From Chthonomonadales bacterium (lineage in GTDB: Bacteria; Armatimonadota; Chthonomonadetes; Chthonomonadales; Chthonomonadaceae): DNA of 31,453 nt. The position numbers were made by a program, and so were the translations under genes. Under the pieces are notes generated by a model. That model had not been told where the DNA came from. It was given only the letters and a program-made list of their open reading frames with translations, and searched no databases. Location of the stretch: assembly GCA_038217285.1 (NCBI GenBank), contig JBBQPO010000032.1:1-31453 (forward strand). Direction: 5' to 3'. Positions 394 to 22,973 of this stretch are shown piece by piece; positions within the stretch are counted from its first letter, which is position 1, and each line of letters begins with the position of its first letter.

Positions 394-1458
394 ATGCAGG
401 CTTCCGCTCGCGCCCTTCCCCGCTACTCTCTGGTCGATCTTGGAACCCTCGCCGGTGGAAGCGTCAGTGAAGCGACCGCGATCAACAACCTCAACCAGGT
501 GGTCGGCTGGTCCAACCTCGGCTCGGTGCAGCAGGAGAACCGGCGCGTGGACAAGTCCTCCTTCCGGCACGGCTTCCTGTGGGCAGACGGACAGCTTTGC
601 GATTTGAACCCGGACGACGGCGTCGATATTCGCCTGCCGCGCGGCATCAACGACGCCGGAACGGTCGTCGGTAATCTCTTTCCGCTGGGGGCGACCAGTC
701 GCAGCTTCTGCGTGAGTGCGGACGGGACGCGAGCAGAACCTCTGCCGGGAGTCCATCGCGCGGAGTCCATCAACGGCCGCGGCTGTATCGCGGGGGCCTG
801 GATCGATACGAACGATACCGTGCAGACGGTTCTGGTCTGTCCGGACGGTGATGGGAACTCCGCTCCGGCGTTTTGGCCGATGCGCCTGGAATCAAGACTG
901 TATGGCGGCGCCATTCGCGCTATCAACAACCGCAACGAGGGCGCCGGCTTTGCGATGCTCGGTCGGACGCCGGACCACGAGCTGAAACAGGCGATCTACT
1001 GGGGAGCGGACGGCACGGGCTGCGCGATCTTCACCGACCAAGAGGCGGCGACGGCAAGCGTAGCGACTGGCATCAATGGCTGGGGGCAGATCGTCGGCTA
1101 TCGCGACGCTCCACGTCTGGCTCAAGCGGCGACTCGGTCCGCTTTTCGGAGAACGGAGCGGGGAGAGATCCTGACCCTGCCCTGCCTGCCCGGCGCGAAG
1201 CAGAGCGAAGCCTGCGGCCTCAATGACGCCGCCCAGGTCGTCGGCATTTCCGGCAATCGCGCCTTCCTCTGGAGCGCCGCCTATGGCGCGGCGGATCTGA
1301 ACGAACTGATCCTCTCCGACAGCGGCTGGACCCTCACCCGCGCCAACGCGATCAACGCCGTCGGCGCTATCGTAGGGCAAGGAGTTTTCCAGGGACAGCG
1401 CCGCGCCTTTCTCGCGCTGCCCTCCTCTACTCCGGGCGGGCGGCAAGGATGGCAGTGA
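394..1458 (+). CDS. HAF-family extracellular-repeat (beta-propeller-like) protein
   Basis: YSLVDLGTL start motif; repeated A-aIN--GqVVG units (ATAINNLNQVVG, GINDAGTVVG, GINGWGQIVG, GLNDAAQVVG, ANAINAVGAIVG) with HGFLW, RAFLW and RAFL motifs. GGAG precedes ATG 394; alternative start at 319. Confidence 0.8.
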   Translation: MQASARALPRYSLVDLGTLAGGSVSEATAINNLNQVVGWSNLGSVQQENRRVDKSSFRHGFLWADGQLCDLNPDDGVDIRLPRGINDAGTVVGNLFPLGATSRSFCVSADGTRAEPLPGVHRAESINGRGCIAGAWIDTNDTVQTVLVCPDGDGNSAPAFWPMRLESRLYGGAIRAINNRNEGAGFAMLGRTPDHELKQAIYWGADGTGCAIFTDQEAATASVATGINGWGQIVGYRDAPRLAQAATRSAFRRTERGEILTLPCLPGAKQSEACGLNDAAQVVGISGNRAFLWSAAYGAADLNELILSDSGWTLTRANAINAVGAIVGQGVFQGQRRAFLALPSSTPGGRQGWQ

Positions 1459-3340
1459 GCGTAAGGGTCTCCTTACCGCGCTGTACGACGATCTGAACCT
1501 TATCGCCGGGTTTGTGCCCCGATAGGGCGACCGTATAGTCCTGAACGCTCTTGACCGTCAGGTCGCCGAACTTGACGATGATGTCGCCCGCCTTCAGTCC
1601 GGCCTTGTCGGCAGGGCTGCCTTCGCGGACGCCGTTCAACTGCACGCCTTCGACCATCGCCGCGTAGTCCGGAATACTGCCGAAATAGACGCGGAATCCG
1701 GGCGATCCGCCGCCGCCGGTCACCTTTACTTTCTGGTAGGTCGGCCTGTCGGGAGCGTCCGCGATGCGCTCCGCACACTCCGCGACCAACCGAAGCACTT
1801 TCGCCTCTCCAGGCGCGTTGATCAGATCGACCGTATCTTCAGGCGTATGATACTGCGGATGCGAGCCGGTAAAGAAGAAGAGCACCGGAATACTCTTGTT
1901 GTAGAACGACTGCTGGTCGCTGGCTCCGAAGCCGTCCATGCTGCGCGACAGGGTAAATCCGGCCGTCTGGTTCAGGCTGTCGAGCAGGCCATCCCACTCC
2001 TTCGCCGTGCCGCTGCCGATGGCGATGAGCTTGTTGTCGCGCAGTCGCCCGACCATGTCCATGTTGAGCATGGCGACGGTCTTTTCCAGCGGGAGGATCG
2101 GGTGTGCCGTATAGTATTCCGAGCCGAGCAGCCCCAACTCCTCGCCGCTGAAACAGATGAGCACCAGAGACCGGCGCGGACGCTGGCGCAGTTGGGCCGC
2201 CCGCTTGATGACTTTTCCTGATGTATCCAGCCCGAAAAAGCGGGCCAGCGCCAGCACACCCGCCGCGCCGGACGCGTTGTCGTCCGCGCCGTGATGGATC
2301 GCCGGGGCGCTGGACTTCGCCAGTGAGCCGGGGCCTCCCATGCCGAGATGATCGAGATGCGCTCCGATCACGACCACTTCGGCCTTCAGCGTCGGATCGC
2401 TGCCTTCGATCATCCCCACGACATTCGCCGTCACCTTCTCGACTGGCTTCACATCCGCAGTAAGGACGACAGTAAATCGCGACTCGAAAGAGACGTTTTT
2501 GCCTGCATCTGCGTCGGCCAGCACCGATTTCAGGTGGTGGTCGGGCGCTAACAACCGTTCCGTAATAACCTGTTTAATCCGCAGCACGGGTAATCCGGCG
2601 TCCGCACTCTCGGCAGAGGTACGCGTGTTCGCGCCAAAGGGGGTCTCTGCGGGCACTGCGACCAGGACTGCGATCGCGCCGAGTTCACGTGCATTCAGCG
2701 TTTTGCGCCGGATGTCGGCCAGCTCCGCCAGAGGACTGTGCGGGTCGTTGCCGGGGCTGCCCGCCAGCATCACGACGATCTTGCCTTTGACGTCCACGCC
2801 GGCAAAGTCGTCGTGATTGGCTTGCGGCGCACGGATGCCATAGCCGACGAAGACAAGTCGTCCCGTCGCCTCTCCGCCTGCCGAGACACTCGACGGTTCG
2901 AGGGTCGGCCCCGACACCCACTGTGTCAGCCCTGCAAAGCCTTTGCCCATAATGAAAAATGTCAGATGACTGTATGTGCCGACAATATGACCTGCACGGA
3001 AGCGAAAGGGCTGATAGTAGCCGCTGCCGTCGAGAGCGGCATGGGGGTCGCGCTGTTGGGAGGTGCCGAGCGGTTTGAGGCCGAAGCGCGCGAACTCGGC
3101 GGCGATATACTGCGCGGCCTTCTCATTGCCGGGCTCTCCACTGCCCCGTCCCTGGAGCGCGTCAGAGGAGAGATAGGCGATCTGTTTTTGGATCGTTTCC
3201 GGTGCGAAGGCCGCACGGGAGATGCTATTATCCTGGGCGTTCGCAGAGAGCGTCCAGAGCAGCCCCAGGACGGCCAGAAGTGGCCCTGCAGAGCGGAACC
3301 GAACCGTGCGCAGAGCGCTCGAAGTTTGCATCCTGGTCAT
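1427..3340 (-). CDS. Secreted M28-family aminopeptidase with PA domain and C-terminal PDZ domain
   Basis: Signal-peptide-like N-terminus (LLAVLGLLWTLSANA-Q); M28 motifs GAHLDHLG, GADDNASG, FSGEELGLLGS, NMDMVGR, SDQQSF, YHTPED; PA motif DVKGKIVV; PDZ motif GSPADKAGLKAGDII. Confidence 0.93.
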   Translation of the reverse strand: MTRMQTSSALRTVRFRSAGPLLAVLGLLWTLSANAQDNSISRAAFAPETIQKQIAYLSSDALQGRGSGEPGNEKAAQYIAAEFARFGLKPLGTSQQRDPHAALDGSGYYQPFRFRAGHIVGTYSHLTFFIMGKGFAGLTQWVSGPTLEPSSVSAGGEATGRLVFVGYGIRAPQANHDDFAGVDVKGKIVVMLAGSPGNDPHSPLAELADIRRKTLNARELGAIAVLVAVPAETPFGANTRTSAESADAGLPVLRIKQVITERLLAPDHHLKSVLADADAGKNVSFESRFTVVLTADVKPVEKVTANVVGMIEGSDPTLKAEVVVIGAHLDHLGMGGPGSLAKSSAPAIHHGADDNASGAAGVLALARFFGLDTSGKVIKRAAQLRQRPRRSLVLICFSGEELGLLGSEYYTAHPILPLEKTVAMLNMDMVGRLRDNKLIAIGSGTAKEWDGLLDSLNQTAGFTLSRSMDGFGASDQQSFYNKSIPVLFFFTGSHPQYHTPEDTVDLINAPGEAKVLRLVAECAERIADAPDRPTYQKVKVTGGGGSPGFRVYFGSIPDYAAMVEGVQLNGVREGSPADKAGLKAGDIIVKFGDLTVKSVQDYTVALSGHKPGDKVQIVVQRGKETLTLTAILAARPE

Positions 3341-3633
3341 TCCTTTTCTGCCGCGCCTGGCTCGGCGTCTTCGGTGGGAGCGATGAGGCGCACGGGGACG
3401 GCGCCGGGCGCTTGAATACGATCGCCGGGGCGGAGTTTACGGCCGCGCCGCTGTTCGGGCTCGCCGTTGACGATCACGACCGTCTCGGACAGATAGTTTT
3501 TCGCTTCGCCGCCCGTGCCGATGATCCCAGCCACTTTCAGCAGTTGACCGAGCGTGATGTGATCGCCCTGGACGACGATGGTCTGGTCCGGCTCGATGGC
3601 CGCCGTGGGAATGCGATTGCGTCGCGCAAGCAT
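3337..3633 (-). CDS. yaaA: S4-domain RNA-binding protein (YaaA/YbcJ-like), 98 aa
   Basis: C-terminal part of ORF 3337..4119: ITLGQLLKVAGIIGTGGEAK...VNGEPEQRRGRKLRPGD. A strong GGAGGAG RBS lies before ATG 3633, and the stop overlaps the peptidase start. Confidence 0.88.
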   Translation of the reverse strand: MLARRNRIPTAAIEPDQTIVVQGDHITLGQLLKVAGIIGTGGEAKNYLSETVVIVNGEPEQRRGRKLRPGDRIQAPGAVPVRLIAPTEDAEPGAAEKE

Positions 3634-3640
3634 AATATTC

Positions 3641-6313
3641 CTATCTCCTCCCGCGCCAGTCCACGATGCCGGGTTCGGTCGCACTGTCGGGCGGCTCGAT
3701 GTCGGCTTTTTCGGCTTGGCGCAGTACCGTTTCGATGGGGGGGCCGCCGGGGTGCATGGCGGCGAAAATCTCGTTGGCATAGCCGATGGCGCTGTTGCGG
3801 TTCGGCGCAAGAATGAGCAGCAGGAGGTCCGCCAGTTTGAAGGCCGGCAACGAACGTACGTCCAGCGAAACCTCCCATAGAAATAGTGTCGGGGAGGAGG
3901 CGCGCAAGCCGCGTAGCCCGGCGAGCGCGGCGCTGAGGGCGTCGAACTGGTCTTCGGCCTTCGGCGCAACCGGATGAAAAAGGTTGACCGCGCCCAGAAA
4001 GCAGGCGCGCGCCTCCGGCTTGCGTTCGGCCTTCTCGTGCAAGAAGCCGAGCTGCACCCAGGCCATCGGGTAGAGCGCGTTGGCGGTGGCATGGTGAAAA
4101 TGTGCCGTCGCCTCCGCAAAGTGATCGGTGATGACGTAGGAGGTGCCGAGCCGAAAGAAGGTCTGCGCCTCCGGATGCTGCATGGCGGCGATCCGCGCCT
4201 GCGCGTCGGCCTGGTCCTTGTGGTCGAGCATCAGGTGCAGGCGAACGAGCGCAAGCTGCACCTCGCAATCCGTCCGCGCATTGGGAAACTTCTCGACGGC
4301 CTCGATCTCCGGCACCGCCGCGCGCGCTTTGCCGGCCATGAGCATGTACTGCACCAGGCGCAGGCGCAGGCGCATCGATTCCGGCTCCAGCGCCACCGCT
4401 CGGCGCATATTCTCGATGGCCTGCCGCAGATTGCCGCGCCGGGCCTGCGCCAGCGCCAGGGCCGCGACGAAGGTAGCCCTGTCCGGCGCTTTGTCCACGA
4501 CCCCGAGCATATAGGCCTCCGCCTCCGCCCAGTTGCCGGTTGCAAGGCAGACCCACGCCATCGCCCAGCGCACCGCAGTGCTGCGGGGATGAATGTTGAT
4601 CACCTGGCCCAGAAGCCTGTCTCCAGCCGACTCCTGCCCCAGGCAGTTGTAGGCCACGCCCGCCAGCAGCCTGCCCTCCAGATTGGTGCGAACCGCTTCC
4701 AGCGCCTGCAGCCCGCAGGAGAGCGCTCCGGTGTAATCACAGCGCTGCAACAAGGTCTGACCACGCTCCGTCCAGTACTGCAGGCGTTCCGCGCGACCGG
4801 CGGAGGCGGCGGGACCTCCTGTGGAGAGCGGAGGCGTCTGCATTACCGGCGTGTAGTTGCTGCCGGCAGCCCAACACCGTTCCAGCGAGTCTTCGAAGAG
4901 TCCAAACTCGGGTACCGGGAGCATCTCCGGCTCCGGCGGCGTCCCGAGGCGAGAGAGCGCCACGCCGAGCACCATCGCCGCCAGACCGCCGCCGACGATC
5001 AATCCGCGTACTTTTGCATCGGCGTCTATCGGGCCGACCATCCCCCCGAGGATCGCGACGCCTCCGCAGAGCAGCAGGACGACCGCGAGCGTCTCCAGAG
5101 CGTTCGGCTCCCGCTTCACGCGCCGCTTGCGTTCCCAGCGGCTCAGGTTTTCGCTCTCTTCGCGCTCTTCGTCCATGAGTGCGCGTTCGATCAGGCTGAA
5201 CAGGCGATCAACGGTGGCATCAGCATCCTTGAACCACGGCGCGGCCACGGTCGGCGCGAACCGAACCGAGACAGGAGCGCCCGCCGCCTCTTCATGGACC
5301 TGCGCGATGCGGTCCTCGATGGTAGGGTGAAAGCTGTAGTGCGAGCGGCGATCCCGGTCGATAGCTTCCCGACGGAGTTTTGCCAGCTCCTTTTCGTCCT
5401 GAACGCGGAGCTTGCCGCGCATCCATTCCGTATAGCTGCCTTCGCGCTGGCTCTGCAGGACGCAGTCGTGCCAGGAGAACTCGGCGGCTTTGGCGTCGAG
5501 GATCGCGCTCTTGAGGAGCGCATCTCCAAAGGTGACGCCGCCGCACAGCTCTGCCGAGGACTTGTCGGCATCGAACTCGTCCTGACGGGAGTAGAGAGCG
5601 TAGAGGCGTACCCCGGCGGCGGCCAGAAGGCTGCCAAGCCGCGCCAGCAGGCTCGCGGTCCAGAAATGGCCCCAGACTTCGCCCTGGACGGGCTCTTCGC
5701 GCAGGGCCAGCTCGCGGGTCTCTTCGACCAACCGGACGAAGCGTGACACGCCCTGCATGCCGACCTTCTTCGCACCGCGCTGCACCAGCAGGGCATGCGC
5801 CATCTCGTGCAGGATGATCGCTTCGATCTCCTCCTGCCCGAGGCCGGTCAGCAAGTTGAAGCCCAACCCCAGCGTGCTCCGGCCGTGCCCGGAACGATAG
5901 CCGTCCAGTCGGACCCAGGCGCCGCAGGTCATCTCCAGCACGATAGAATCGGGCTCCGCGCATCCGGTACGGCGCGCGCAGTCGCGCACGGTCGCGAAGA
6001 GCTGCGGGGCTTCGGCCACGGTCAGAGCGATATGGTACTTCGCGCCCTCGCGCGGGCTGCGAAAGGTGGAGACGATCACTCGGGCAAGCCGCCACATGCG
6101 GCGAAACGGCGGGATCGCGGCTCCGGGCTGCAGGAGCCGCGCCATGATGAGCAGCAGAAATACGTCGGCTACCAGCACGCACGCGATAATCAGTAGCGCC
6201 AGCAGGCAGAGCGGAAAATAGAGCAGTGTCAGGAGGGCCAGCAGGAAGATCAGTCCGGCTTTCACCGGCGTCGAGATCGGCCGTTCACGCCTGGCAACGA
6301 CAATAGTGTTCAC
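3641..6313 (-). CDS. M48 (HtpX/Ste24-like) membrane zinc metalloprotease fused to TPR-like repeats
   Basis: N-terminal TM segments; HEMAH zinc motif; QDEFDAD third ligand; FHPTIEDRI; two central TM helices; then Ala/Leu-rich TPR-like repeats. Start taken as GTG 6313; the ORF is open to 6349. Confidence 0.85.
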   Translation of the reverse strand: MNTIVVARRERPISTPVKAGLIFLLALLTLLYFPLCLLALLIIACVLVADVFLLLIMARLLQPGAAIPPFRRMWRLARVIVSTFRSPREGAKYHIALTVAEAPQLFATVRDCARRTGCAEPDSIVLEMTCGAWVRLDGYRSGHGRSTLGLGFNLLTGLGQEEIEAIILHEMAHALLVQRGAKKVGMQGVSRFVRLVEETRELALREEPVQGEVWGHFWTASLLARLGSLLAAAGVRLYALYSRQDEFDADKSSAELCGGVTFGDALLKSAILDAKAAEFSWHDCVLQSQREGSYTEWMRGKLRVQDEKELAKLRREAIDRDRRSHYSFHPTIEDRIAQVHEEAAGAPVSVRFAPTVAAPWFKDADATVDRLFSLIERALMDEEREESENLSRWERKRRVKREPNALETLAVVLLLCGGVAILGGMVGPIDADAKVRGLIVGGGLAAMVLGVALSRLGTPPEPEMLPVPEFGLFEDSLERCWAAGSNYTPVMQTPPLSTGGPAASAGRAERLQYWTERGQTLLQRCDYTGALSCGLQALEAVRTNLEGRLLAGVAYNCLGQESAGDRLLGQVINIHPRSTAVRWAMAWVCLATGNWAEAEAYMLGVVDKAPDRATFVAALALAQARRGNLRQAIENMRRAVALEPESMRLRLRLVQYMLMAGKARAAVPEIEAVEKFPNARTDCEVQLALVRLHLMLDHKDQADAQARIAAMQHPEAQTFFRLGTSYVITDHFAEATAHFHHATANALYPMAWVQLGFLHEKAERKPEARACFLGAVNLFHPVAPKAEDQFDALSAALAGLRGLRASSPTLFLWEVSLDVRSLPAFKLADLLLLILAPNRNSAIGYANEIFAAMHPGGPPIETVLRQAEKADIEPPDSATEPGIVDWRGRR

Positions 6314-6436
6314 GGAAATTTCCTGATAGGAACAGAGCGGATAGAGCAATGGGCCGGAAGCCGCCGTGCGCTTCCTCCCTTCTCATTATAGCGGAGATGG
6401 CCTGTGACGTCAACCGGGCCGAGGAGTGCCGCGCTT

Positions 6437-7477
6437 CTACTCCCGGCGGTCGGGCGGCGCGACGATACGGGGACGCAACAGTTGTTCCGGCGCGGCCTCG
6501 GGCCGGTCGCCTGCCGGCCTCAACAGGGACTTAGGCGTCTCCGCATCGCTGCTTTTCGCGGGCCGCAGGAGCGCACTGTTCTGTTTCTGCTGCTTCAGCC
6601 GGGACTCGATCTCCTCCAGACACTGCCGCGCCGCCGCTTCCACCTGATCGCTGCCGACGTACCAGTGCTCTTCGCGAATCAGCCTCTTCAAGGCGGGAAT
6701 CGTTTGCGCGTCTCCCCACTGTTCCAGACGGTCAAGAATGCCGACCGCCAGTTCGACGTCGTCCTCCGGTCTCTGCAGGAGAAGCAGCAAGGCGTGGCGC
6801 TGTTCGGCAGAAAGCTCTATCGCCTGCTCCGGACCGATCTGCGACAGCAGTCCCTTGACGAGCCTGCGATACCGTCGGCGCTGCTGGTTGGCCTCGTGCA
6901 GACCGAACGTAGAGTAGATGCTGTTGTATCCCATATTTGCCGGGGTGAACCTAGCTCCGGGGCGGATCTCATCCGTAGGGTCTTTATCCCGCTCGAAGAG
7001 CGTAAATCTTTCGGCTATATTGGAGAGGAGATAGGGCAGGAAGCGCGCATCCGATCTGTCGGCAATCAAGGAAACCACGGAGAAAGGGGGAGAAGCGACA
7101 GCGCTCCGATTGCCACGCCCAAAGTTCCCATACCATGGTATCGAGCGCGCCAGACAGCCCATCATCGTCAGCATCATCGTCACGATACCGACGCCGAGGA
7201 CGGCTACGACTGCCTTCATCAGAGGACCAGCCGACGGATCTCTGCGCAGCGCCCAGGCAATCGCGAGGGTAAATAAGGCGTAGGGGAGGGCGTGGGTCAG
7301 TCGGCTCGCAAGCCGTCTGTTGGCCGCCGTGCACCGCACCGGATGGCTCACGAGAAACTGCAGTACAGTCTCATCGGGCAGTTCCGAAATCTGCTTCGCT
7401 GCAGCGGTTCGGAGATCAATATCCGGACTGTAAGCGTGCCGGATAAGCAGTTCGAGAACTTCCTTTTCGGTGGACAC
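6437..7477 (-). CDS. Hypothetical membrane protein with HEAT-like repeats
   Basis: Two TM helices; HEAT/PBS-like segments (LAVGILDRLEQWGDAQTIPALKRL, VEAAARQCLEEI); triple LLRP tail; GGAG before GTG 7477. Confidence 0.7.
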   Translation of the reverse strand: MSTEKEVLELLIRHAYSPDIDLRTAAAKQISELPDETVLQFLVSHPVRCTAANRRLASRLTHALPYALFTLAIAWALRRDPSAGPLMKAVVAVLGVGIVTMMLTMMGCLARSIPWYGNFGRGNRSAVASPPFSVVSLIADRSDARFLPYLLSNIAERFTLFERDKDPTDEIRPGARFTPANMGYNSIYSTFGLHEANQQRRRYRRLVKGLLSQIGPEQAIELSAEQRHALLLLLQRPEDDVELAVGILDRLEQWGDAQTIPALKRLIREEHWYVGSDQVEAAARQCLEEIESRLKQQKQNSALLRPAKSSDAETPKSLLRPAGDRPEAAPEQLLRPRIVAPPDRRE

Positions 7478-7589
7478 GGATCACTCCAAGAGGGAAATCA
7501 GGATCAACGCTGTTATACCCCAAACACGAAAGTTATAGATTTACGGACCCTCAGAGCGCACGACCCTCCCCTCAGACCCTGAGAACTAC

Positions 7590-7620
7590 TGCGGGCTGTA
7601 GCGAAATACTACAGCCCGCA
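7590..7620. terminator. Hairpin downstream of the copper-oxidase gene (probable terminator)
   Basis: TGCGGGCTGTAG-CGAAATA-CTACAGCCCGCA is a perfect 12-bp stem about 30 bp after the stop at 7653; the U-tract is weak. Confidence 0.55.
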
Positions 7621-7652
7621 CAGGCATAGTTCCCTCATTTTGCATGAGCGGG

Positions 7653-10600
7653 TTAGGCGTGGAGGCGAATCCACATGCCCACGGAGGGTATCCGGTTGTG
7701 GTCTACAATAAACAGCAGGTGGAATCCGGGCGGTGTGACTGTCCCGTCAGGCGGGGCTTGGACTTGAAGCACGCCAGCGGTCTGGCTGACGATAGTGCAG
7801 TACACAAGCCGCTGCGCCATGTTAAAGCCATGGGTTGTGGCGCCTGGGTGGAGAAGGACCACTTCCGCGATCAAGGCCGCGTTCGGTGTCTGCACGGAGA
7901 ACTGCGCACCGAATAGGACGGAGGCGTCCGCTGTTGAAATGGATGGCCTTGGCTGCTCGAAGTAGGAGGGGAAGTAGCGGTCATGCGGTGTTATGATCGG
8001 TGGGTCCGTGCGGACGTCGGGTGGATCACCGCCCATCAGGATACTGCCATCGGGCAATAAGATGGCGGACGAGTGGTACAGGCGATAGTGCGGCATGACA
8101 GCGCCGACTACCCAGCCATCCTCGGGCTTCATGGGATCGAAGATCTCGACCGGCCCCGGTCCACTTGGTCCGGGCATGCCTCCGGCGATCAGGACGCGCC
8201 CATCAGGCAGAAGTACCGAATTTACCTGCAGGACCCGCCGGCCGTTCAGTTCTTTGGTATAGGTCCACGCTGGGGTGGGAACCGATAGGTCGATAATCTC
8301 GGCTGTTTTCTCCGGATGGTTGTGGTTTCCAGGGTCTCCACCGGCGATCAGAACGCGCGGCTCATAGTTCGGCGGCCGCAGTGGCAGTAACACCGATGTG
8401 CCCATCTGCTGGTCATTGGGGCTGCGGTCGCCCGCATTGGTGTTCCATGTTTTGCCTGGGGCATCGACAGGTGCGGCCCGATCAAAGCGACGCGTGACTC
8501 CTTGGTGACCTGCAATGAATAGATCGCCGCCAGGCAACACATAGGTCCATGGGTAGTACCGATAGTCGAATGCGGGAAACGCAGGGTACGGCGCGCCGCG
8601 CGCCCATGTGCCGGCGTTAGGATCATAGATCTCCATGGAGTGAGCGAGAGTACGCGGAGGCTTGTTCGGTTCATGACCGCCTTCCTGATGCGATCCGAAG
8701 AGCGTCAACACGGTACCGTCTGGAAGCGTCAACGTCGTCGAGTAGTATCTGCCCTCGATGGTCGGGGACGTTCGTGACCAGGCGAGCGTCCCCGGGTTGA
8801 ATCGAAAGACCTGCGTCGAGGTGTTCCCGCCATGGATAAGAAGTTCCGCATCCGGCGTGTCCATATACGCATGTTGGGAAGAGTGTAGGTCCCAATTAGC
8901 GGGCGGCGGTGGGTCACCGGGTGCCGCCGGATCCGGTAGGGCGACATCAATGGGTTGGTTCGTCGGCGGCACGTACAAGCCTGAAGCGTAGTCCCACAGT
9001 TGGCTTATTCTGCCATTGATGGTTCCGTCAGTGTCGACTGCATAACCGTAAAACAGGACCTTGGTTGTGTTTGGCAGCAACATCGAATGCATCATTGTCT
9101 TCCCAGGATCGCCGGGAACCGTTTCCCAGCGGCCCAGAGTGAGACGGTCCATGCGATTAGCCGCCATGAAATTTGCCGAACCGATAGCCGGTGCTAATGC
9201 TTGAGCAGGGTTCGCCTCTCTGGGAACGCCTGGGCCTGGCGCGCCTTTCGGTACCAACGCGTCGATATCGACCCCAATTTGTTGCTTCTGAGTGTCCGTA
9301 AGCCAGAGCGTCTGATGGGACCGGACGAGACCGGCAAGTCCGGCCATCATGTGCATCTCCACATGACAGTGAAAGAGGAAGTTGCCGACGATTTCATAGG
9401 CATTTGCTCCCTCCGGCCTGTTGGCCTCGTCCTGCGTCGCCTCGATCTCCGGCGGCAAAAGCAGTACAGGCGGGGCTTCCGTCTCGATGACGAATGACTC
9501 CGCTGGCCCGATGCTGAGCACGTCTACGACCTTGTTGCCGACATTCCAGCGCTGACCGTGCGTATGAAAGTTGTGCCACCCCGTGCCAAGATCAAGGTTA
9601 AAGACATACCACCGAATTCTCTGACCTGGGACGGCACGGATGATCGGAGTGTTGCCCGCGAATGTGCGCCCGTTGAGACAGTAGGACTGGATCTGCAACT
9701 TGTTCCCGTTCTCGGTCACTGTGTGCGCCATTGTAGCGGGAAACCAGGTGACCGTTCCGCCGGGTCGTACGGTGACCGTAGGCGGATCAAAGCCCATCTG
9801 GTCACCCTCGTTTATCCGCACACTGACACCAGCATCGCCGTCTGCTTGCACAATGACCGTCCCCTTCATCTCGGGATGAATCGTGCAGTGGTAACCATAG
9901 GTTGCTTCTAATTGGAAAACGAACGTATAGGGAGCCGTTCCAGGCTCCAGCCGATGGTTAAACAGTGGCTTCGCAGAAAGACTGGCGATTTTCATGTCGG
10001 GGCCGGAGGCGTTTGACATCGCCATATCCATAGGTGGCATAGAGGAGGCGGCTAGCGGGTTCAGCAGATGCAGGAAGATCGGGACATGGAGCACGCGTGA
10101 ATCGCGAGATTCCGGATGCACATAGGTCAGTCCGGCCCATTCGGAGAGGAAACTTTTCAGCGTTTTTACATCTTCATTGGGAACCGGCACGGCGCTGGTC
10201 TGGGAATGATCGGTGGTAGCCTGCGCGATTGCCGGCAGTTTCAGGTCCGGGATCGTATCGCGGTCCTCCTCCGGCACCACGATAATGGCGCCAAACAGGC
10301 CGCGGGTTATGGTCGAGCCGATGCTCTGGGCGTGGTCATGAAACGGCCAGGCTCCGATCATATCCTCGGTAACATCAAACGTATACGTCCAACTCTGTCC
10401 CTGACGTATCTCGTCCGAGCGCAGGAGTCCTCCGACGCTCTGAACTCCCAAGGGCCATGATCCGTCCGAATCGATACCGTAACGTAGGCCATGGACGTGA
10501 AAGCTGTGTGGTGCCTGATCGGCGTTGAAAACATGGATCTTCAGCCGCTCTCCTGGGAATGTATAGACGACCATACCCGGCACCCGGTGATCGAATACCG

Positions 10601-10853
10601 GCTCCGTGATGTCGGCCAATACCAACTTGTCGGGCTTGGGTACAGCATATTGGGGGTCCAAATACTCACGGTACACAAGGGCACTCAGTCGGCGCGCCTC
10701 GACCTCGATATCGGGTATCGTGCCGTCCTCATGTCCCGAGTTACGCATCATGTCACGTCGGTACCCCTTCATAGGGCCACTTTTGGGTTCAGGATCAACG
10801 GGGCTGTAGTATGGGATCTCCTCGATCCGAACGTAGATATTGCGCTCTGCCAT
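7653..10853 (-). CDS. Multidomain copper protein: two-domain multicopper oxidase (small-laccase type) + inserted cupredoxin + galactose/glyoxal-oxidase-like Kelch propeller with C-terminal DUF1929-like domain
   Basis: MCO motifs HSFHVHG, WPFHDH, HNFHTHG, HCHVEMHMMAGL; cupredoxin motifs YHCTIHPEM and FDPPTVTVRPGGTVTW..HTV; AA5-type motifs RYYSTTLTLPDG, YYPWTYVLP, RLYHSSAILLPDG, ATTHGFNMAQR. Start set at ATG 10853 after GAAAGGA; the ORF is open to 10949. Confidence 0.9.
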   Translation of the reverse strand: MAERNIYVRIEEIPYYSPVDPEPKSGPMKGYRRDMMRNSGHEDGTIPDIEVEARRLSALVYREYLDPQYAVPKPDKLVLADITEPVFDHRVPGMVVYTFPGERLKIHVFNADQAPHSFHVHGLRYGIDSDGSWPLGVQSVGGLLRSDEIRQGQSWTYTFDVTEDMIGAWPFHDHAQSIGSTITRGLFGAIIVVPEEDRDTIPDLKLPAIAQATTDHSQTSAVPVPNEDVKTLKSFLSEWAGLTYVHPESRDSRVLHVPIFLHLLNPLAASSMPPMDMAMSNASGPDMKIASLSAKPLFNHRLEPGTAPYTFVFQLEATYGYHCTIHPEMKGTVIVQADGDAGVSVRINEGDQMGFDPPTVTVRPGGTVTWFPATMAHTVTENGNKLQIQSYCLNGRTFAGNTPIIRAVPGQRIRWYVFNLDLGTGWHNFHTHGQRWNVGNKVVDVLSIGPAESFVIETEAPPVLLLPPEIEATQDEANRPEGANAYEIVGNFLFHCHVEMHMMAGLAGLVRSHQTLWLTDTQKQQIGVDIDALVPKGAPGPGVPREANPAQALAPAIGSANFMAANRMDRLTLGRWETVPGDPGKTMMHSMLLPNTTKVLFYGYAVDTDGTINGRISQLWDYASGLYVPPTNQPIDVALPDPAAPGDPPPPANWDLHSSQHAYMDTPDAELLIHGGNTSTQVFRFNPGTLAWSRTSPTIEGRYYSTTLTLPDGTVLTLFGSHQEGGHEPNKPPRTLAHSMEIYDPNAGTWARGAPYPAFPAFDYRYYPWTYVLPGGDLFIAGHQGVTRRFDRAAPVDAPGKTWNTNAGDRSPNDQQMGTSVLLPLRPPNYEPRVLIAGGDPGNHNHPEKTAEIIDLSVPTPAWTYTKELNGRRVLQVNSVLLPDGRVLIAGGMPGPSGPGPVEIFDPMKPEDGWVVGAVMPHYRLYHSSAILLPDGSILMGGDPPDVRTDPPIITPHDRYFPSYFEQPRPSISTADASVLFGAQFSVQTPNAALIAEVVLLHPGATTHGFNMAQRLVYCTIVSQTAGVLQVQAPPDGTVTPPGFHLLFIVDHNRIPSVGMWIRLHA

Positions 10854-11176
10854 TAGGTGTGCATTCCTTTCGATCTCGTAACGGTTCCCCCGGTAAAGCC
10901 TGGGGGCTTTGACGTTCCAATGCTTACAGCGCAGGCTGCAATCGGACATCTATAGGGCGCGTTACAATTTCGCCCTGTGCTTCCAGTCCTTTGTTTCGCC
11001 ACCGAGGCCATCAGGTTGGCTTGGAAATGTATATTGCTTTCTAATGCTAATGCAATTCGACATCAATCGGCAAGTTCCTGCATGTTTTTTTAGTGGTTTC
11101 TTTTTAAACTTCCGGAACTACAAGCACCGCCTCTGTGTCCTACCGAAGCACCATGCACTGAAACACAAGCGACCAC

Positions 11177-11206
11177 TTGACAAACATCTACAACTTATGA
11201 TATAGT
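11177..11206 (+). promoter_or_regulatory. Sigma70-type promoter upstream of the enediyne cassette
   Basis: TTGACA (11177-11182), an 18-bp spacer, and TATAGT (11201-11206) with an extended -10 TG, in an AT-rich intergenic region. Confidence 0.65.
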
Positions 11207-11634
11207 TTTAAGTGCTCGGTCGCACTGACATCATTACATAGTTTCGTTACTTTTGAGCGACGTCAAGGAAGACTCACCGTTCTCACAAGACCTCCTGTTC
11301 TTCCTCAACATCGTTTCGAACCACACGAATCCTTCCAGACACGCTCTGTGGGCGAGGGGAAATTCTTCGCAGATTTGGGTACACCGGCATGTGTGTACCA
11401 TGTGCGCGGAAAACCCCCGGTCGTTCTCTGAGAGCGATTATGAAGAAGCCTCCCGCTACAGATGCGTTTCTCAGGCGACCGCAAAAACAAAAAACAGGAC
11501 AGACGAAAGTCTAAACGCCAATTTATCGATACCAATTGGTTGGCCGCGATTCTGGTATCCGACGATTTCACTTGAACGGCTTGCTGCCCGGCGGCACGTT
11601 TTACATGTCCCGGACAGGAAGGGGCGAGCGCACC

Positions 11635-12624
11635 TTGGTAAATTGGAAACGCAAGTTACTGAAGATTGCCCCGGAAGAAGTCACCTTTGAACGACGAGGC
11701 TTTTCGTGTTCCAGCCGCGACACACGCGATCACCTGGAGAGTATCGGCCGAACGTTCGTCGCAGGATACCATGCTGCGCTCGAAGAGGACGACTTGACGG
11801 CTCTGTCCAGTTCCTTGAACGCTGTACCCCGGGAATACCGGGGTTTCGCTTTCGAGGGAGCCGCCATGGGTCTCACTCTCCTGGACTGCCTGATGCCCTG
11901 GGGCCGCCGCCGCCTGGACGCTTTCCTGGCTGGGCCTGGGGCCGATCATACCTATATGGTGTACGTGGGAGCGGGTTGGGCGCTCGCCCGGTTGAAGCGC
12001 CGGGTGGACGGACCGCTCACGCGCTGGGATCCCTTACTGCGCTGGCTGGCGATCGACGGCTACGGATTTCACGAGGGATATTTCCACCCGAAACCGGTTA
12101 TCGCGCATCAGGAACGACCGGGACGATGGACCGGTTATGCGCTGCGCGTCTTCGATCAAGGCCTGGGCCGGAGTCTATGGTTCGTCAACGGCGGCGATGC
12201 CGACCGCATTCGGACGACAGTGGCCGCTTTTGACCCGGACCGGCATGCGGATCTCTGGAGCGGTGTCGGACTTGCGTGCGCCTACGCCGGCGGAGTAGAC
12301 CGTTCTTCCGTGGAGGCCGTCCGGTGCGCTGCCGGTCCCTTTCTCCCCAGCCTGGCGCAGGGGGCTGCCTTCGGGGCGAAAGCCCGCCAACAGGCCGATA
12401 ATCCCGCTGACCATACGGAGGTTGCGTGTGCCGTCTTCTGTGGCCTGAGCGCTGCGGACGCGGCGCGCGTCACCGATGCAGCCTTGATAGATCTGGCGCC
12501 CGAGGGCGCGAAACCAGCATACGACGTCTGGCGAAAACGAATTCAGAGCCGATTCACGGAGGACGAGGCCGCGACATGCTACACACCCTGTTCCGAAAAT
12601 ACTGCGTACGGTTCATCGCGATAG
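11635..12624 (+). CDS. unbL: Enediyne biosynthesis protein UnbL / E3 (DUF1702)
   Basis: Motifs TFERRGF, RGFAFEGAAMGL, YMVYVGAGWA, WLAIDGYGFHEGYF, FDQGLGRSLWFV, DLWSGVGLACAYAGG, LAQGAAF; first gene of the cassette. TTG 11635 follows AGGAAGGGG; alternative ATG at 11605. Confidence 0.92.
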   Translation: MVNWKRKLLKIAPEEVTFERRGFSCSSRDTRDHLESIGRTFVAGYHAALEEDDLTALSSSLNAVPREYRGFAFEGAAMGLTLLDCLMPWGRRRLDAFLAGPGADHTYMVYVGAGWALARLKRRVDGPLTRWDPLLRWLAIDGYGFHEGYFHPKPVIAHQERPGRWTGYALRVFDQGLGRSLWFVNGGDADRIRTTVAAFDPDRHADLWSGVGLACAYAGGVDRSSVEAVRCAAGPFLPSLAQGAAFGAKARQQADNPADHTEVACAVFCGLSAADAARVTDAALIDLAPEGAKPAYDVWRKRIQSRFTEDEAATCYTPCSENTAYGSSR

Positions 12625-14555
12625 TGCCGATCATCGTGCTCTATCGGCTCTCGCAACTGCCTGCTGCTACGGGCGAGGAACGCAACGCCATGGCGGCCCG
12701 GTTTCACTTCGCGACCAGCCCCCTGCCTACCCTTCCCGGCCGTGTGCAGAAGTCTATCCGGAACGTAAATCCCAGCCTGAACCACATTTCGGGCTGGATC
12801 TCGTCGGTCGGCGCGTCGGTCGCGTTAAGCGATCTGGATGGCGATGGACTTCCCAATGATGTCTGTTATGTGGATCCCCGTACCGATGAGGTGATCGTGG
12901 CTCCCGTGCCTGGGACGCCCGCACGCTACAAGCCCTTTGCGTTGACCCCGGAGCCGCTGCCCTACGACCGGAAAACAATGGCGCCGATGGGGTGTGTGCC
13001 GGGTGATTTCAATGAAGATGGTTTGACCGACATTCTGGTCTACTACTGGGGCCGCCCTCCGATCCTGTTTCTCCGCCGCAGTATCCCGTCGGGGCATGGT
13101 CCTGTGCCGTTGACACGCCCGGAATATGTCCCGCAGGAGCTCGTCACGAACGGCGAGCGCTGGTACACCAATGCGGTCACACAGGCCGATCTCGACAGCG
13201 ACGGCCATATCGACCTCGTCGTGGGGAACTACTTCCCGGATGGCGCGCGCATTCTCGACGCCTCTGCCACAAACCCAGAAACGGTGCAGGACACCATGTC
13301 GCGCGCGTTCAACGGGGGCGGCAAGCACTTTCTGCTCTGGCAGGGCGGTACGGCCGGGGCCTCGCCGACAGCGCATTTCAAGGAAGTCGATTCGGGGCTT
13401 GACGACGAGACGCTGCATGGGTGGACTCTGGCCCTCGCGGCGGGGGATCTCGACGGCGACCTGCTGCCGGAGCTCTATCTGGCCAACGACTTCGGCCCGG
13501 ACCGTCTGCTGCACAACCGTTCGACGCCGGGACACCTCCATTTCGTTTCGCTCAAAGGCCGCAAGAGGTTCACCACTCCCAACTCGAAAGTGGTGGGGAA
13601 CGACTCCTTCAAAGGGATGGGCGTTGACTTTGGCGACCTGAATGGAGAGGGTCAATATGACATCATGGTCAGCAACATCGCCGCAAACTACGCGCTGGAG
13701 GAGAGCAACTTCCTGTTTATGCATACCGGCGAGACGGCGCTGATGAAACAGGGCGTCGCACCCTACGAAGACCGCAGTGAAGCGCTCGGCCTCTCGCGCG
13801 GGGGCTGGACCTGGGACGCCAAGTTTGCCGATTTCGATAACAGCGGCGCGCTCGATGTGATCCAGGCGGCAGGCTTTGTGCAGGGAACGATCAACCGATG
13901 GCCGGAACTACACGAACTGGCGATGGGCAACGACGATCTTCTCCGACGCTCCTCCTCATGGCCGCGCGTCCAACAGGGCGATGACCTGTGTGGGCACCAG
14001 CACAATCCCTTCTTCGTCCGCGCGGCGGATGGGCGCTACTACGACATCAGCCACGAGATAGGGATGGACGAGACCCATGTCACGCGGGGAATCGCCATCG
14101 CCGACGTGGATGGGGATGGTCGCCTGGACTTCGCCATCGCAAACCAGTGGGAAACATCGGTCTTTTATCATAATGAAAGTCCCAATCCCGGCGCGTTCCT
14201 GTGCCTGCATCTTCTGCTGCCGGTCCACGGGGAGCCGCCGTCGGAATTTAGCGTTCAACCGGGCCATCCGACGCCGGACCATCCCGGTCGCCCCGCGATT
14301 GGGGCGACCGTCACGGTGAGCCTGCCGGGCGGCAGGCGTGCCATGGCCCAGGTCGATGGCGGAAACGGCCATTCCGGACGACGCAGCCCGGAACTCCATT
14401 TCGGATTAGGACGCCTCGCTGCCGAGGCGCGCCTTAATGTCGCTCTCCGATGGCGCGACACGACGGGACAGGTTCACTCCAAAACAGTCGAACTCTCCCC
14501 CGGATGTCATACCCTCTTGCTCGGATCCGCGACCGGGAAGGGGACACGTCTTTGA
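12576..14555 (+). CDS. unbV: Enediyne biosynthesis protein UnbV / E4 (FG-GAP repeats + ASPIC/UnbV domain)
   Basis: N-terminal hydrophobic anchor; WISSVGASVAL; multiple D-DGDG--D repeats; DSFKGMGVD; RWPELHELAMGND; C-terminal QVDGGNGHSGRRSPELHFGLG. ATG 12576 follows GGAGGACGAGG. Confidence 0.93.
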   Translation: MLHTLFRKYCVRFIAIVPIIVLYRLSQLPAATGEERNAMAARFHFATSPLPTLPGRVQKSIRNVNPSLNHISGWISSVGASVALSDLDGDGLPNDVCYVDPRTDEVIVAPVPGTPARYKPFALTPEPLPYDRKTMAPMGCVPGDFNEDGLTDILVYYWGRPPILFLRRSIPSGHGPVPLTRPEYVPQELVTNGERWYTNAVTQADLDSDGHIDLVVGNYFPDGARILDASATNPETVQDTMSRAFNGGGKHFLLWQGGTAGASPTAHFKEVDSGLDDETLHGWTLALAAGDLDGDLLPELYLANDFGPDRLLHNRSTPGHLHFVSLKGRKRFTTPNSKVVGNDSFKGMGVDFGDLNGEGQYDIMVSNIAANYALEESNFLFMHTGETALMKQGVAPYEDRSEALGLSRGGWTWDAKFADFDNSGALDVIQAAGFVQGTINRWPELHELAMGNDDLLRRSSSWPRVQQGDDLCGHQHNPFFVRAADGRYYDISHEIGMDETHVTRGIAIADVDGDGRLDFAIANQWETSVFYHNESPNPGAFLCLHLLLPVHGEPPSEFSVQPGHPTPDHPGRPAIGATVTVSLPGGRRAMAQVDGGNGHSGRRSPELHFGLGRLAAEARLNVALRWRDTTGQVHSKTVELSPGCHTLLLGSATGKGTRL

Positions 14556-15553
14556 CACAGAGCAAACTCCCTGCAAAACCATTTCTGCCGGCGCTTCGGC
14601 GGTTTGCGTTCGCCATCACGGTTCTCAATATCCTGGGCCACACGGTGCTGGGTTTTGAACAGTCCTGGGCGACGCCTGTCGTGGCGCTTCTCACCGCCTA
14701 CAGTATGGAGTTCCTGCTGGAATGGGTAGACTCCCTCGTCAACCACCGGCGACCACGATTCATCGGAAACTTCCGGCACGTTGTCGACTTCCTGCTCTCC
14801 GCCCACATCACCGGGCTGGCGTGCGGAATGCTTCTCTATGCCAATGATCGGCTGTGGCCCACCAGTTTTGCGGTCGCTGTCGCCATCGGCTCAAAAGTGA
14901 TCCTCCGGGTTCCTATCGGCAAAGCCACCCGGCATGTGTTCAACCCCTCCAACTTCGGTATCACCGCGACGCTCCTGCTTTTTCCGTGGATCGGTATCGC
15001 GCAGCCCTATATGTTCACCGAGAACCTGCATGGCATCGGCAAGTGGATTCTGCCGGGAGTGATCGTGCTGAGCGGCTCGTTTCTGAACCTTCGTATGACG
15101 CGCCGCGGCCCTCTGATCGCTACGTGGCTCGCCTGCTTTGCCCTCCAGGGCTTACTTCGCAGCTTATCCTTCGGCACACCGATAGAGGCGCCGTTCCTTC
15201 CCATGACCGGAATGGCCTATCTCCTGTACACATTTTATATGGTAACGGACCCTGCCACCACCCCGGACAACCCGAAGGGCCAGATCGTCTTCGGAGCTTC
15301 CGTCGCCGCGACCTATGGACTGCTGCTGGTGAATCACATCGTCTTCGGCCTGTTCTTTTCCCTGACGATTGTCTGTACGCTGCGTGGTCTGATGCTCTGG
15401 GCAAGATCTCTCTCGCTTGCCGCTCATCCGACAAATCTCTCCACGGAACCAGTTTTCGCTGCGGTAGCAACTTCCTTCCCGGAACCGGTTCGCGCTGTGG
15501 TAGCGGGTGAACGAGACCGCTCCACGGAGATCGTGAGGACGACGGGACCATGA
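14552..15553 (+). CDS. unbU: Enediyne biosynthesis membrane protein UnbU / E5 (RnfD/NqrB-like)
   Basis: Motifs ALRRFAFAITVLNILGHTVLGFEQ, AHITGLA, RHVFNPSNFGI, YTFYMVTDPATTP; many TM helices. The TTG start overlaps the unbV stop (TTGA). Confidence 0.92.
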   Translation: MTQSKLPAKPFLPALRRFAFAITVLNILGHTVLGFEQSWATPVVALLTAYSMEFLLEWVDSLVNHRRPRFIGNFRHVVDFLLSAHITGLACGMLLYANDRLWPTSFAVAVAIGSKVILRVPIGKATRHVFNPSNFGITATLLLFPWIGIAQPYMFTENLHGIGKWILPGVIVLSGSFLNLRMTRRGPLIATWLACFALQGLLRSLSFGTPIEAPFLPMTGMAYLLYTFYMVTDPATTPDNPKGQIVFGASVAATYGLLLVNHIVFGLFFSLTIVCTLRGLMLWARSLSLAAHPTNLSTEPVFAAVATSFPEPVRAVVAGERDRSTEIVRTTGP

Positions 15554-21384: not shown

Positions 21385-21386
21385 CC

Positions 21387-21824
21387 ATGCCCGACTACTA
21401 TGAGTACCGCCATATCGTCGGTTTCGAAGAGACAAATCTTGTCGGCAACGTCTACTTCACCAATCATCTGAAGTGGCAGGGACGGTGTCGGGAGCTCTTC
21501 CTGCGCGACCATGCGCCCGTGGTGCTGGCGGCGCTGGCGGACGGGCTCTGCCTGGTGACGGCCCGCTGCTCGTGCGACTACCTGCAGGAACTGGCGCCCT
21601 TTGACGAAATCGCGGTTCGGATGCGCTTAGGCAGTCAGGCGCAGAACCGTCTGGTGTTGTTATTCGAGTACTGGCGGTGCGGAGCCTCGGGCGAGGAACT
21701 GGTGGCGCGCGGCGAACAGCACGTCGTCAGCATGGAGCGCCGGGCAGATCAATCGGTGGTGCCGGTGCCGATGCCAGAGGGACTGACAACCGCCTTGACC
21801 CGGTTTCTCCGAACCGCTCCGTGA
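21387..21824 (+). CDS. Enediyne hot-dog-fold thioesterase (E10; SgcE10/CalE7/DynE7-like)
   Basis: YYEYRHIVGFEETNLVGNVYF..HLKWQGRCRELFL motif with the conserved Arg-Glu pair; immediately follows pksE. Confidence 0.94.
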   Translation: MPDYYEYRHIVGFEETNLVGNVYFTNHLKWQGRCRELFLRDHAPVVLAALADGLCLVTARCSCDYLQELAPFDEIAVRMRLGSQAQNRLVLLFEYWRCGASGEELVARGEQHVVSMERRADQSVVPVPMPEGLTTALTRFLRTAP

Positions 21825-22925: not shown

Positions 22926-22973
22926 TGCGACCGCCCTTCTGAACAGCTTCAGAAGGGCGGTCGCAGTTTTGTT
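22926..22973 (+). terminator. Strong intrinsic terminator, probably bidirectional
   Basis: TGCGACCGCCCTTCTGAA-CAGC-TTCAGAAGGGCGGTCGCA is a perfect 18-bp stem followed by GTTTTGTT, between convergent genes. Confidence 0.8.

Follow-up and report, generated by a model that had tools for sequence, protein, structure and literature searches.

Can a single bacterial polypeptide join a small laccase, a further blue-copper domain and a galactose-oxidase-like propeller, and how would such a chain work as one enzyme? The question is raised by a gene on the minus strand of contig JBBQPO010000032.1 (assembly GCA_038217285.1) of a Chthonomonadales bacterium. The window, meaning the whole stretch of DNA that was analysed, is 31,453 nucleotides long and is an entire contig of a 6.2-Mb assembly that is 95% complete. 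Conservation across homologues indicates that the encoded copper enzyme is a single chain carrying copper sites of four kinds: a trinuclear cluster and a type-1 site in a multicopper oxidase (MCO) half, a second type-1 site in an extra cupredoxin, and a mononuclear Cu(Tyr)2(His)2 site in the propeller. The best reading of this arrangement is an internally wired oxidase, which we hold tentatively, with a confidence slightly short of even.

The longest open reading frame (ORF) at this position in the ORF listing of the window spanned 7653-10949 on the minus strand (1098 aa). The true start was the ATG at 10853; a matching Met opened every homologue in a 40-sequence alignment, with the pattern M-x-x-R-x-[IV]-Y-L-K-I-E, in agreement with the coordinates 7653-10853 given in the original prediction. 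An AAGGA-like ribosome-binding stretch was read by eye about 12-16 nt 5' of this ATG. The 32 additional codons were spurious because the ORF ran into a dispersed repeat; residues 1-32 of the long ORF matched two other contigs of the same genome, and the further copies of the repeat lay on contigs C294 and C155 with 94% and 85% identity. Residue numbers below are counted from the ATG at 10853, and Pfam positions follow the 1098-aa numbering of the long ORF. The gene and its parts were as follows.

7653-10853, minus strand: whole coding sequence, 1066 aa plus stop (ATG 10851-10853; stop 7653-7655)
10269-10853, minus strand: MCO cupredoxin domain 1, residues 1-195 (Pfam Cu-oxidase_3, conservation, fold)
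10062-10268, minus strand: helical linker, variable, followed by the conserved strand LHVPIFLH, residues 196-264 (alignment, model)
9969-10061, minus strand: window-specific Met-rich insertion beginning SSMPPMDMAMS, residues 265-295 (alignment)
9705-9968, minus strand: putative inserted amicyanin-like type-1 cupredoxin with permuted halves, residues 296-383 (amicyanin alignment, Pfam/NCBIfam, conservation)
9264-9698, minus strand: MCO cupredoxin domain 2, residues 386-530 (Pfam, conservation, fold)
9132-9263, minus strand: linker between MCO and propeller, residues 531-574 (alignment; predicted local distance difference test score, pLDDT, <50)
7950-9131, minus strand: Kelch-type GlxA/galactose-oxidase propeller, residues 575-968 (alignment to 4unm, Foldseek, conservation)
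7656-7949, minus strand: galactose-oxidase-like E-set (DUF1929), residues 969-1066 (PF09118; carries H1008)
10873-10994, no strand assigned: dispersed repeat, about 120 bp long and close upstream of the ATG, with two further genome copies

The chain was intact, as had been claimed: Logan contigs of the probable source run spanned the ORF with 0 differences, although these data are not independent of the assembly. Neither of the other two frames hid a consensus motif, whether in the divergent linker, in the insert or in the stretches that had lost Cys. A frameshift or assembly artefact was ruled out by these empty alternative frames, the Logan agreement and homologues of the same architecture. 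The probable source run was the only sequencing run that carried the stretch, and additional Logan contigs began or ended at the repeat. No Rfam match was obtained in 7000-12000, the repeat included; the repeat folded only weakly better than its shuffles (z -1.85), and a promoter and terminator scan did not exceed shuffled expectation. G+C was 0.56-0.61 over 7001-11000 versus 0.60-0.68 for most of the contig.

The N-terminal half had been described as a two-domain MCO resembling small laccase, and motifs, Pfam, Protein Data Bank (PDB) matches and modelled fold all agreed. A script recovered the four motifs named in the original prediction (HSFHVHG at 116-122, WPFHDH at 169-174, HNFHTHG at 427-433 and HCHVEMH at 495-501). 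Pfam Cu-oxidase_3 matched 119-228 (E 2.8e-11), and the best stretch for Cu-oxidase_2 was 411-470 (E 9.6e-12). Conservation was scored in 131 full-length sequences, namely the window protein and 130 homologues of 900-1300 aa. Each of the eight trinuclear-cluster His, paired as H119/H121 and H172/H174 in domain 1 and as H430/H432 and H495/H497 in domain 2, was present in 129-131 of the 131, and the type-1 ligands of domain 2 (H427, C496 and H501) were each present in all. Domain 1 had no type-1 site; the Cys-equivalent position held Asp173, and Asp in 128/131. With its type-1 site in domain 2 only, the protein is therefore a type B two-domain MCO. The axial position 506 was Leu in 120 sequences, including the window protein (Leu506), Met in 10 and Ile in 1. 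An axial Leu raises the potential of a laccase type-1 copper, and by this established chemistry the MCO type-1 site is expected to be a high-potential one.

An AlphaFold model of residues 1-565 had a pLDDT of 80.6 and a predicted template modelling score (pTM) of 0.79. Its best Foldseek matches were ceruloplasmin and factors V and VIII, and TM-scores on the target were 0.57-0.67 for whole chains of SLAC-type laccases versus 0.19-0.27 for three-domain laccases. A fold search independent of Foldseek gave this order: factor VIII (Z 27.7) and ceruloplasmin (Z 27.5) came before 9cck (Z 22.9), the NirK 4kns (Z 22.9), 3gdc (Z 22.6) and 3t9w (Z 21.8), with two-domain cores at Z 20.9-22.9 versus three-domain MCOs at Z 15.5-19.5. 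In a PDB sequence search, the N-half matched two-domain laccases at E ~1e-12 to 1e-7, and ceruloplasmin too. The modelled chain thus appears laid out like a two-domain unit and not like a three-domain laccase. With such a layout, the trinuclear cluster should form between subunits and, by analogy, should lie at the subunit interfaces of a trimer. The linker between MCO and propeller was divergent in the window protein and had none of the Cys residues that most homologues keep there.

The extra type-1 copper module of the original prediction was present, with invariant ligands; rather than a plain tandem module, the domain seems to be permuted, inserted and amicyanin-like. The copper-loop motif YHCTIHPEM was found by script at 321-329, and the ligands C323, H326, M329 and H377 were each retained in 131/131. 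Matches were partial for both Pfam Copper-bind (375-412, E 1.6e-6) and NCBIfam amicyanin. When a 146-aa query piece was aligned to amicyanin, amicyanin 77-105, the Cys-His-Met loop, fell on residues 64-92 of the piece, and amicyanin 26-55, the His strand, fell on residues 107-135, in reversed order; the aligned amicyanin residues are, we assume, Cys92-His95-Met98 in the loop and His53 in the strand. The same split and reversed order of the halves was seen in the Pfam and NCBIfam matches. In the sequence alignment the His strand thus followed the copper loop, the reverse of the canonical cupredoxin order. Residues 300-380 were modelled as continuous strands (pLDDT 86-96), and the Met-rich insertion before them was predicted to be disordered (pLDDT <50 at residues 271-292). 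The simplest reading of these alignments is a circularly permuted amicyanin-like module that was inserted where MCO domain 2 begins. The conserved LHVPIFLH strand that precedes the insertion was found also in P0139, an MCO without the cupredoxin. Among the listed papers on circular permutation and cupredoxins, titles and abstracts mentioned no natural permuted type-1 domain.

The C-terminal half had been called an AA5-like Kelch domain with a DUF1929-like tail. The tail was identified by Pfam GO-like_E_set (formerly DUF1929, PF09118) at 1001-1095 with E 2.4e-22. The propeller agreed with the prediction in its fold and in its two Tyr and two His ligands, but not in the cross-link Cys and stacking Trp, which were replaced by Ser658 and Tyr703. 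Matches to the Pfam Kelch and Glyoxal_oxid_N models were below their own cut-offs, and the best NCBIfam model, GlxA NF052501, scored 137.9 bits, below its equivalog cut-off of 800. PDB sequence matches were obtained to GlxA (4unm, E 2.5e-23) and galactose oxidase (~1e-21). Foldseek matches ranged from 8e-34 to 1e-31 (4unm E 7.9e-34; 1gof ~1e-32), and the full-length model had a pLDDT of 77 and a pTM of 0.57. The copper ligands Y704, Y926, H927 and H1008 were each present in 131/131 and aligned to GlxA Y289/Y501/H502/H589. At the cross-link position, FCTGH of GlxA faced HSSQH of the window protein in a stretch where the alignment was weak.

Position 658 was Ser in 127 of the 131 sequences and Cys in 4; position 703, equivalent to GlxA Trp288, was Phe in 124, Tyr in 3 and Trp in 4. 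Covariation was perfect: Cys658 and Trp703 occurred together only in P0129, P0130, P0133 and P0134 (39-42% identical), and all 127 Ser forms had Phe or Tyr at 703, indicating that the two losses are coupled. Propeller-only proteins P0171, P0183 and P0187 carried RWYP, with FC[AS]G[HQ] in addition in P0171, and their N-termini were hydrophobic and signal-like by eye. A quick maximum-likelihood tree was made of 59 propellers: 27 of Ser type (22 random from 126, P0124, P0126, P0127, P0131 and the window protein), 4 of Cys type, and the first 28 propeller-only proteins that passed a motif filter. The Ser-type propellers formed one clade on a long branch, with a Shimodaira-Hasegawa-like approximate likelihood ratio test (SH-aLRT) value of 100, and the Cys-type fusions clustered with the propeller-only proteins. 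The order of events was not fixed because the tree is unrooted. The Tyr-Cys cofactor is given as the hallmark of the copper radical oxidase family in PMC11267884. With the Cys absent and this cofactor therefore lost, the window protein falls outside that family, though its copper site is intact.

The homologues were likewise fused rather than encoded by two separate genes. A search of 5.8 billion proteins returned 995 matches at E <= 0.001 among 7982 scored candidates; the best 120 of these were 987-1185 aa long, 45-53% identical, and all carried PF07732, PF07731, PF07250 and PF09118. An exhaustive search of cluster representatives found full-length clusters down to ~39% identity. In a genome survey with one genome per species, the best 80 of 157 relative-encoding stretches yielded 56 loci, and a metagenome scan added 80 loci, none with >52% identity, for a combined set of 136. 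The 56 genome loci came from Actinomycetota, many Acidobacteriota, Nitrospira, Planctomycetota, Bacteroidota, Chloroflexia, Verrucomicrobiota and Proteobacteria (alpha-, beta- and gammaproteobacteria among them); also on the list were Gemmatimonadales, Gaiellaceae, Jiangellaceae, Acidimicrobiia, Lentzea aerocolonigenes NBRC 13195, Fimbriiglobus, Phycisphaerae, Ginsengibacter, Ferruginibacter, Anaeromyxobacter and Sorangium. The family occurs widely among bacteria of soils and sediments. Database names were generic ('galactose oxidase-like domain-containing protein', 'plastocyanin', 'FtsP/CotA-like multicopper oxidase'), and the ESM Atlas held clusters with the identical Pfam set under automatic names only. 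The three-module architecture was thus borne out by the Pfam set, ligand conservation and structural matches. All four kinds of copper site were invariant or nearly so, and therefore selection keeps them together in one chain. The shared Pfam set of the best matches and the spread of the loci argue that the fusion is real and old.

The gene was sporadic in its own lineage. None of 40 relatives gave a full-length match, two of them matched the propeller part only (34-35% identity), and an N-half query matched none of the 400 further genomes sampled from the phylum. None of the 10 matching plasmid records covered more than 46% of the fusion query. Many short homologue matches were fragments at contig ends. 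Three Ser-type propellers of 480-528 aa (P0293, P0297 and P0302), on contigs of 24-97 kb, had their first residues at the MCO type-1 motif or shortly beyond it; these could be true split, frameshifted or mis-called genes. Other relatives of the laccase half apparently stood alone. P0139 had no insert, its strand HVPxF[FY]H leading straight to the CxNGR strand of domain 2, and P0142 and P0149 had the cupredoxin insert and no propeller. All three had the N-terminus I-Y-L-K-I-E or I-W-L-K-I-E with no evident signal peptide, and comparison of their sequences suggests that the modules were added stepwise.

The absence of a Sec or Tat signal, which had been noted at the window protein's start, extended to the family. 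By eye, none of the 131 N-termini had a signal-like hydrophobic start. Most (104/131) began 5-6 residues before the Y-L-K-I-E motif; of the 17 that missed the regular expression, most began alike with variant residues by eye and three were N-truncated, and 10 carried N-terminal extensions of 9-156 residues. The upstream DNA agreed with these starts, with an in-frame stop no more than 15 codons upstream in 13 of 31 genome loci and no upstream start codon in 17 of 31. In three of these ten, P0053, P0123 and P0129, an extra N-terminal segment of ~110-155 aa was transthyretin-like and not a signal peptide; in P0129 it matched TTR-52 (PF01060) at 6.3e-5, just under the cut-off. Copper enzymes are, to our knowledge and in the general view, held to be almost absent from the bacterial cytoplasm.

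We infer the existence, path and direction of electron flow, and likewise the substrate, the trimeric state and the location in the cell. The propeller copper would oxidise a small substrate, by analogy probably an alcohol or hydrated aldehyde, and electrons would pass singly from it to the tethered blue-copper domain. They would go on from the cupredoxin type-1 copper to the laccase type-1 copper and the trinuclear cluster, where O2 would be reduced to water and not to H2O2. Amicyanin is the dedicated electron acceptor of a quinoprotein dehydrogenase, a tryptophylquinone enzyme. The inserted domain aligns to amicyanin and looks like a relay, for which tethered cupredoxins feeding two-domain cores provide precedents, and in the sequence this relay-type cupredoxin lies between the two catalytic modules. 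Loss of the Tyr-Cys cross-link and of the Trp fits a site freed from storing an oxidising equivalent as a stabilised radical. We favour the internal wire on account of the 1:1 fusion, the invariant relay copper and the high-potential kind of axial Leu, and because the main clade lost exactly the two radical-stabilising residues, as expected if electrons leave singly. An extended form of the same reading makes the family a new oxidase class, in which a radical-free Cu-Tyr propeller acts as a dehydrogenase wired through a permuted amicyanin to a laccase, the MCO works in the cytoplasm, the Cys/Trp forms are intermediates and the product is water. Taken whole, this extension is doubtful.

Several observations weigh against the wired oxidase. 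The linker between the halves was modelled with low confidence in the full-length prediction (pTM 0.57), and none of the results gave a contact or a distance between the propeller copper and either type-1 copper. (A complex prediction of propeller 570-1066 with cupredoxin and domain 2, 245-535, scored 0.00 and counts neither way.) Four fused relatives keep both Cys and Trp, so the fusion is compatible with a canonical radical site too and fits an activator role equally well. Cys patterns in the family also sit oddly with a cytoplasmic enzyme. The positions C573/C917 were lost jointly in 22/131 and never singly, the positions C35/C150 were lost jointly in 5/131 and singly in one sequence each, and the three covarying Cys pairs have the typical pattern of disulfides and look like such; the window protein itself had none of the three conserved pairs. 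No RNA run was listed as carrying the stretch and no expression data were found. Finally, neighbours in some loci point to LodA-like donors or copper homeostasis.

A built-in activator is the alternative that survives best, although we consider it unlikely. The propeller would then be a two-electron oxidase that makes H2O2, and the laccase and cupredoxin would occasionally remove one electron to make or restore the radical state, replacing peroxidase partners. Copper radical oxidases depend on a one-electron oxidant, and peroxidases are their natural partners, according to PMC11611005, PMC4736821 and PMC12951238. The canonical Cys/Trp pair of the four fused relatives and the high-potential axial Leu in 120/131 sequences are as this activator role would have them. 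However, the main clade, the window protein included, has neither the Cys nor the Trp that makes the radical accessible and stable, and a strict 1:1 fusion with an invariant relay copper exceeds, we infer, what an occasional activator would need.

Gene neighbourhoods of the homologues bear on the other alternatives. No neighbour family (ORFs of at least 90 aa) was shared by more than 9 of the 56 genome loci, and no conserved small ORF of 40-250 aa occurred within 1.8 kb in more than 3 loci, so an escort protein like MelC1 was not evident. Of the 75 loci with at least 1.8 kb of downstream sequence, 16 had a LodA-like gene no more than 1.5 kb downstream; L031 and L072 are LodA-linked loci. In almost all cases the LodA-like gene shared the strand of the fusion gene, at a distance of 25-645 bp, and a LodB-like flavoprotein gene came after it. 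Tyrosinase-like genes lay just downstream of the fusion gene in L013/L083, L015 and L049. In L013 (6247-9315) and L083, the gene directly 3' of the fusion gene encoded a 1023-aa protein combining tyrosinase and von Willebrand A domains; LodA-like proteins with a von Willebrand A domain (pfam13519) are given in PMC4417212.

These arrangements allow the fusion protein to be a terminal oxidase for a separate donor, a LodA-like cysteine-tryptophylquinone protein, or its propeller to act on the aldehyde product of that partner, and amicyanin, as is well established, naturally accepts electrons from a tryptophylquinone enzyme. We nevertheless regard a donor of this kind as quite improbable, given that 59 of the 75 informative loci had no LodA, several LodA-positive contigs were near-duplicates, and no LodA_N match was present in the window genome. 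Such a donor would leave the invariance of the propeller copper ligands unexplained, and the MCO described in PMC4417212 is no more than a candidate member of the fused family.

A copper-induced cuprous or metallo-oxidase, or a copper sink like CueO/PcoA, with the propeller as an accessory, is less probable again and can be called very unlikely. Copper-type P-type ATPase genes lay within ~1 kb of the fusion gene in six loci (L005, which is that of the cultured Lentzea aerocolonigenes NBRC 13195, L009, L018, L080, L094 and L095), a CusS-type sensor kinase gene lay 226 bp upstream in L018, the linker at 196-264 had at least 15% His+Met in 41/131 sequences against a whole-protein median of 6.8%, and the window protein has its Met-rich insert. 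But this is a minority context, with an ATPase match anywhere in the locus in 11/136, and co-regulation with copper supply would be expected anyway of an enzyme with a demand of six coppers per chain. The linker of the window protein is short and not rich in His or Met. The cuprous oxidases known to us are exported, unlike the fusion family, which has no signal peptide.

On the other side of a 680-bp spacer, divergent from the copper gene, the window carried five genes.

11536-12624, plus strand: DUF1702 gene
12426-14555, plus strand: FG-GAP/UnbV_ASPIC gene (the ORF as listed runs into the neighbouring one at its 5' end and probably starts further downstream)
14450-15553, plus strand: gene for an RnfD-like membrane protein
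15550-21384, plus strand: gene for an iterative polyketide synthase (PKS) of 1944 aa with ketosynthase, acyltransferase, acyl carrier protein, ketoreductase and dehydratase domains (KS-AT-ACP-KR-DH)
21378-21824, plus strand: hot-dog thioesterase gene

In our reading, 11536-21824 on the plus strand is a complete enediyne-type polyketide cassette, since the DUF1702, UnbV, RnfD-like, PKS and thioesterase families presumably map to enediyne genes. Neither 25 relatives nor 400 further genomes sampled from the phylum yielded the DUF1702 gene, and the copper gene and the cassette may have arrived together. That the copper enzyme is a tailoring enzyme of this adjoining cluster, acquired with it as one island, is highly improbable: the two lie divergently side by side, and neither of these rare genes (judged by the copper N-half and DUF1702) occurred in the 400 phylum genomes or in close relatives, but none of the 136 homologous loci held any of the five cassette genes, the copper gene had a G+C of 0.56-0.61 versus 0.61-0.67 for the cassette, and the dispersed repeat sits at their junction. 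A general tailoring role for the copper enzyme does not follow from these data.

Beyond the cassette lay a 262-aa ORF (22110-22898, plus strand) that by eye had a hydrophobic signal-like start and a PEP-CTERM-like tail (PEPGSLALV...RRRRSR) and had no Pfam or NCBIfam match. A resistance-nodulation-division (RND) efflux pair followed at 22949-27612 on the minus strand, consisting of a 1020-aa AcrB-family pump and a 534-aa CusB/HlyD-type membrane-fusion protein. Downstream of the copper gene, 1427-7477 on the minus strand encoded a HEAT-repeat ORF (346 aa, weak match, with a hydrophobic stretch), a 902-aa protein with M48-peptidase and tetratricopeptide repeat (TPR) domains, and an M28-PA-PDZ peptidase. 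None of the 136 homologous loci had a counterpart of the HEAT ORF.

Copper radical oxidases and laccases are among the best-studied copper enzymes and are widely used biocatalysts. The fusion family appears to be uncharacterised, as the original prediction had supposed: literature searches found no paper on an MCO-propeller fusion, and a PDB sequence search found no solved chain spanning both halves. Its main branch dropped the defining Tyr-Cys cofactor yet kept every copper ligand, a natural experiment in which the Cys/Trp and Ser/Phe fusions can be compared to learn what the cross-link is for. If the internal wire is true, the protein would be a self-activating, peroxide-free alcohol or aldehyde oxidase, unlike radical oxidases, which need an external oxidant. 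If the radical-free wired class is also true, an MCO would work in the bacterial cytoplasm, across phyla that encode it without an export signal, and the few Cys/Trp fusions would mark the passage from a radical oxidase that activates itself to the wired form. Since a signal peptide is consistently absent, one may ask where bacteria load a six-copper enzyme, and by what means. The recurrent LodA/LodB and tyrosinase neighbours tie the family to an oxidase cluster noted in 2015 and still unexplained.

In its propeller half, the fusion protein resembles GlxA of Streptomyces lividans and the fungal AA5 oxidases (4unm, 1gof, 9n3u), with a seven-bladed Kelch propeller, an E-set and four aligned copper ligands. 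It differs from them in having Ser for the cross-link Cys and Tyr or Phe for the stacking Trp, and from GlxA also in having no signal peptide or membrane anchor and in being joined to a laccase. The laccase half is like the SLAC-type enzymes (3cg8, 3kw8, 3t9w, 4m3h) in its two cupredoxin domains, four HxH motifs and type-1 site in domain 2. Unlike SLAC, it has a putative permuted cupredoxin of ~90 aa at the start of domain 2, an appended propeller, an axial Leu in place of Met, and no Tat signal. Ceruloplasmin and factors V and VIII gave the best N-half folds (Z 23.5-27.7) and are built from the same two-domain units, with multiple type-1 sites in ceruloplasmin; they are, however, eukaryotic and secreted, with six domains per chain and no propeller.

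The inserted domain is like amicyanin (1aac) in its YHCTxHPxM copper loop and its His strand (E 2e-6 to 5e-6), but its halves are reversed and it is embedded in a laccase chain. Nmar_1354 of Nitrosopumilus maritimus (9cck) has a two-domain MCO core with a tethered type-1 domain, and its cupredoxin matches the N-half of the insert; unlike in the fusion, that cupredoxin is C-terminal and there is no propeller. Nmar_1354 is described as oxidising hydroxylamine to HNO in PMC11761707. The tethered kind of copper nitrite reductase, NirK (6tfd Z 21.3, 6the Z 21.9, 6hbe; Z 20.9-21.9) has a trimeric two-domain core fed by a fused cupredoxin or haem domain. NirK uses a type-2 catalytic copper, whereas the fusion keeps all eight trinuclear-cluster His.

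A further likeness is to the operons of LodA group ID, as in Bradyrhizobium japonicum USDA6, in which an uncharacterised MCO with PF07731 and PF07732 stands beside tyrosinase, lodA-like and lodB-like genes and for which a functional link has been proposed in PMC4417212. A subset of the fusion loci shares the tyrosinase, LodA and LodB neighbours. Those operons have a small gene between lodA and lodB, for which there is no room in L072 (130-bp gap) or L037 (overlap), and PMC4417212 describes neither a propeller nor a cupredoxin insert in its MCO. The pieces of the fusion protein are of known kinds; its unusual traits are a type-1 domain that seems to be permuted, a propeller in which the cross-link Cys is missing and a chain without an export signal.

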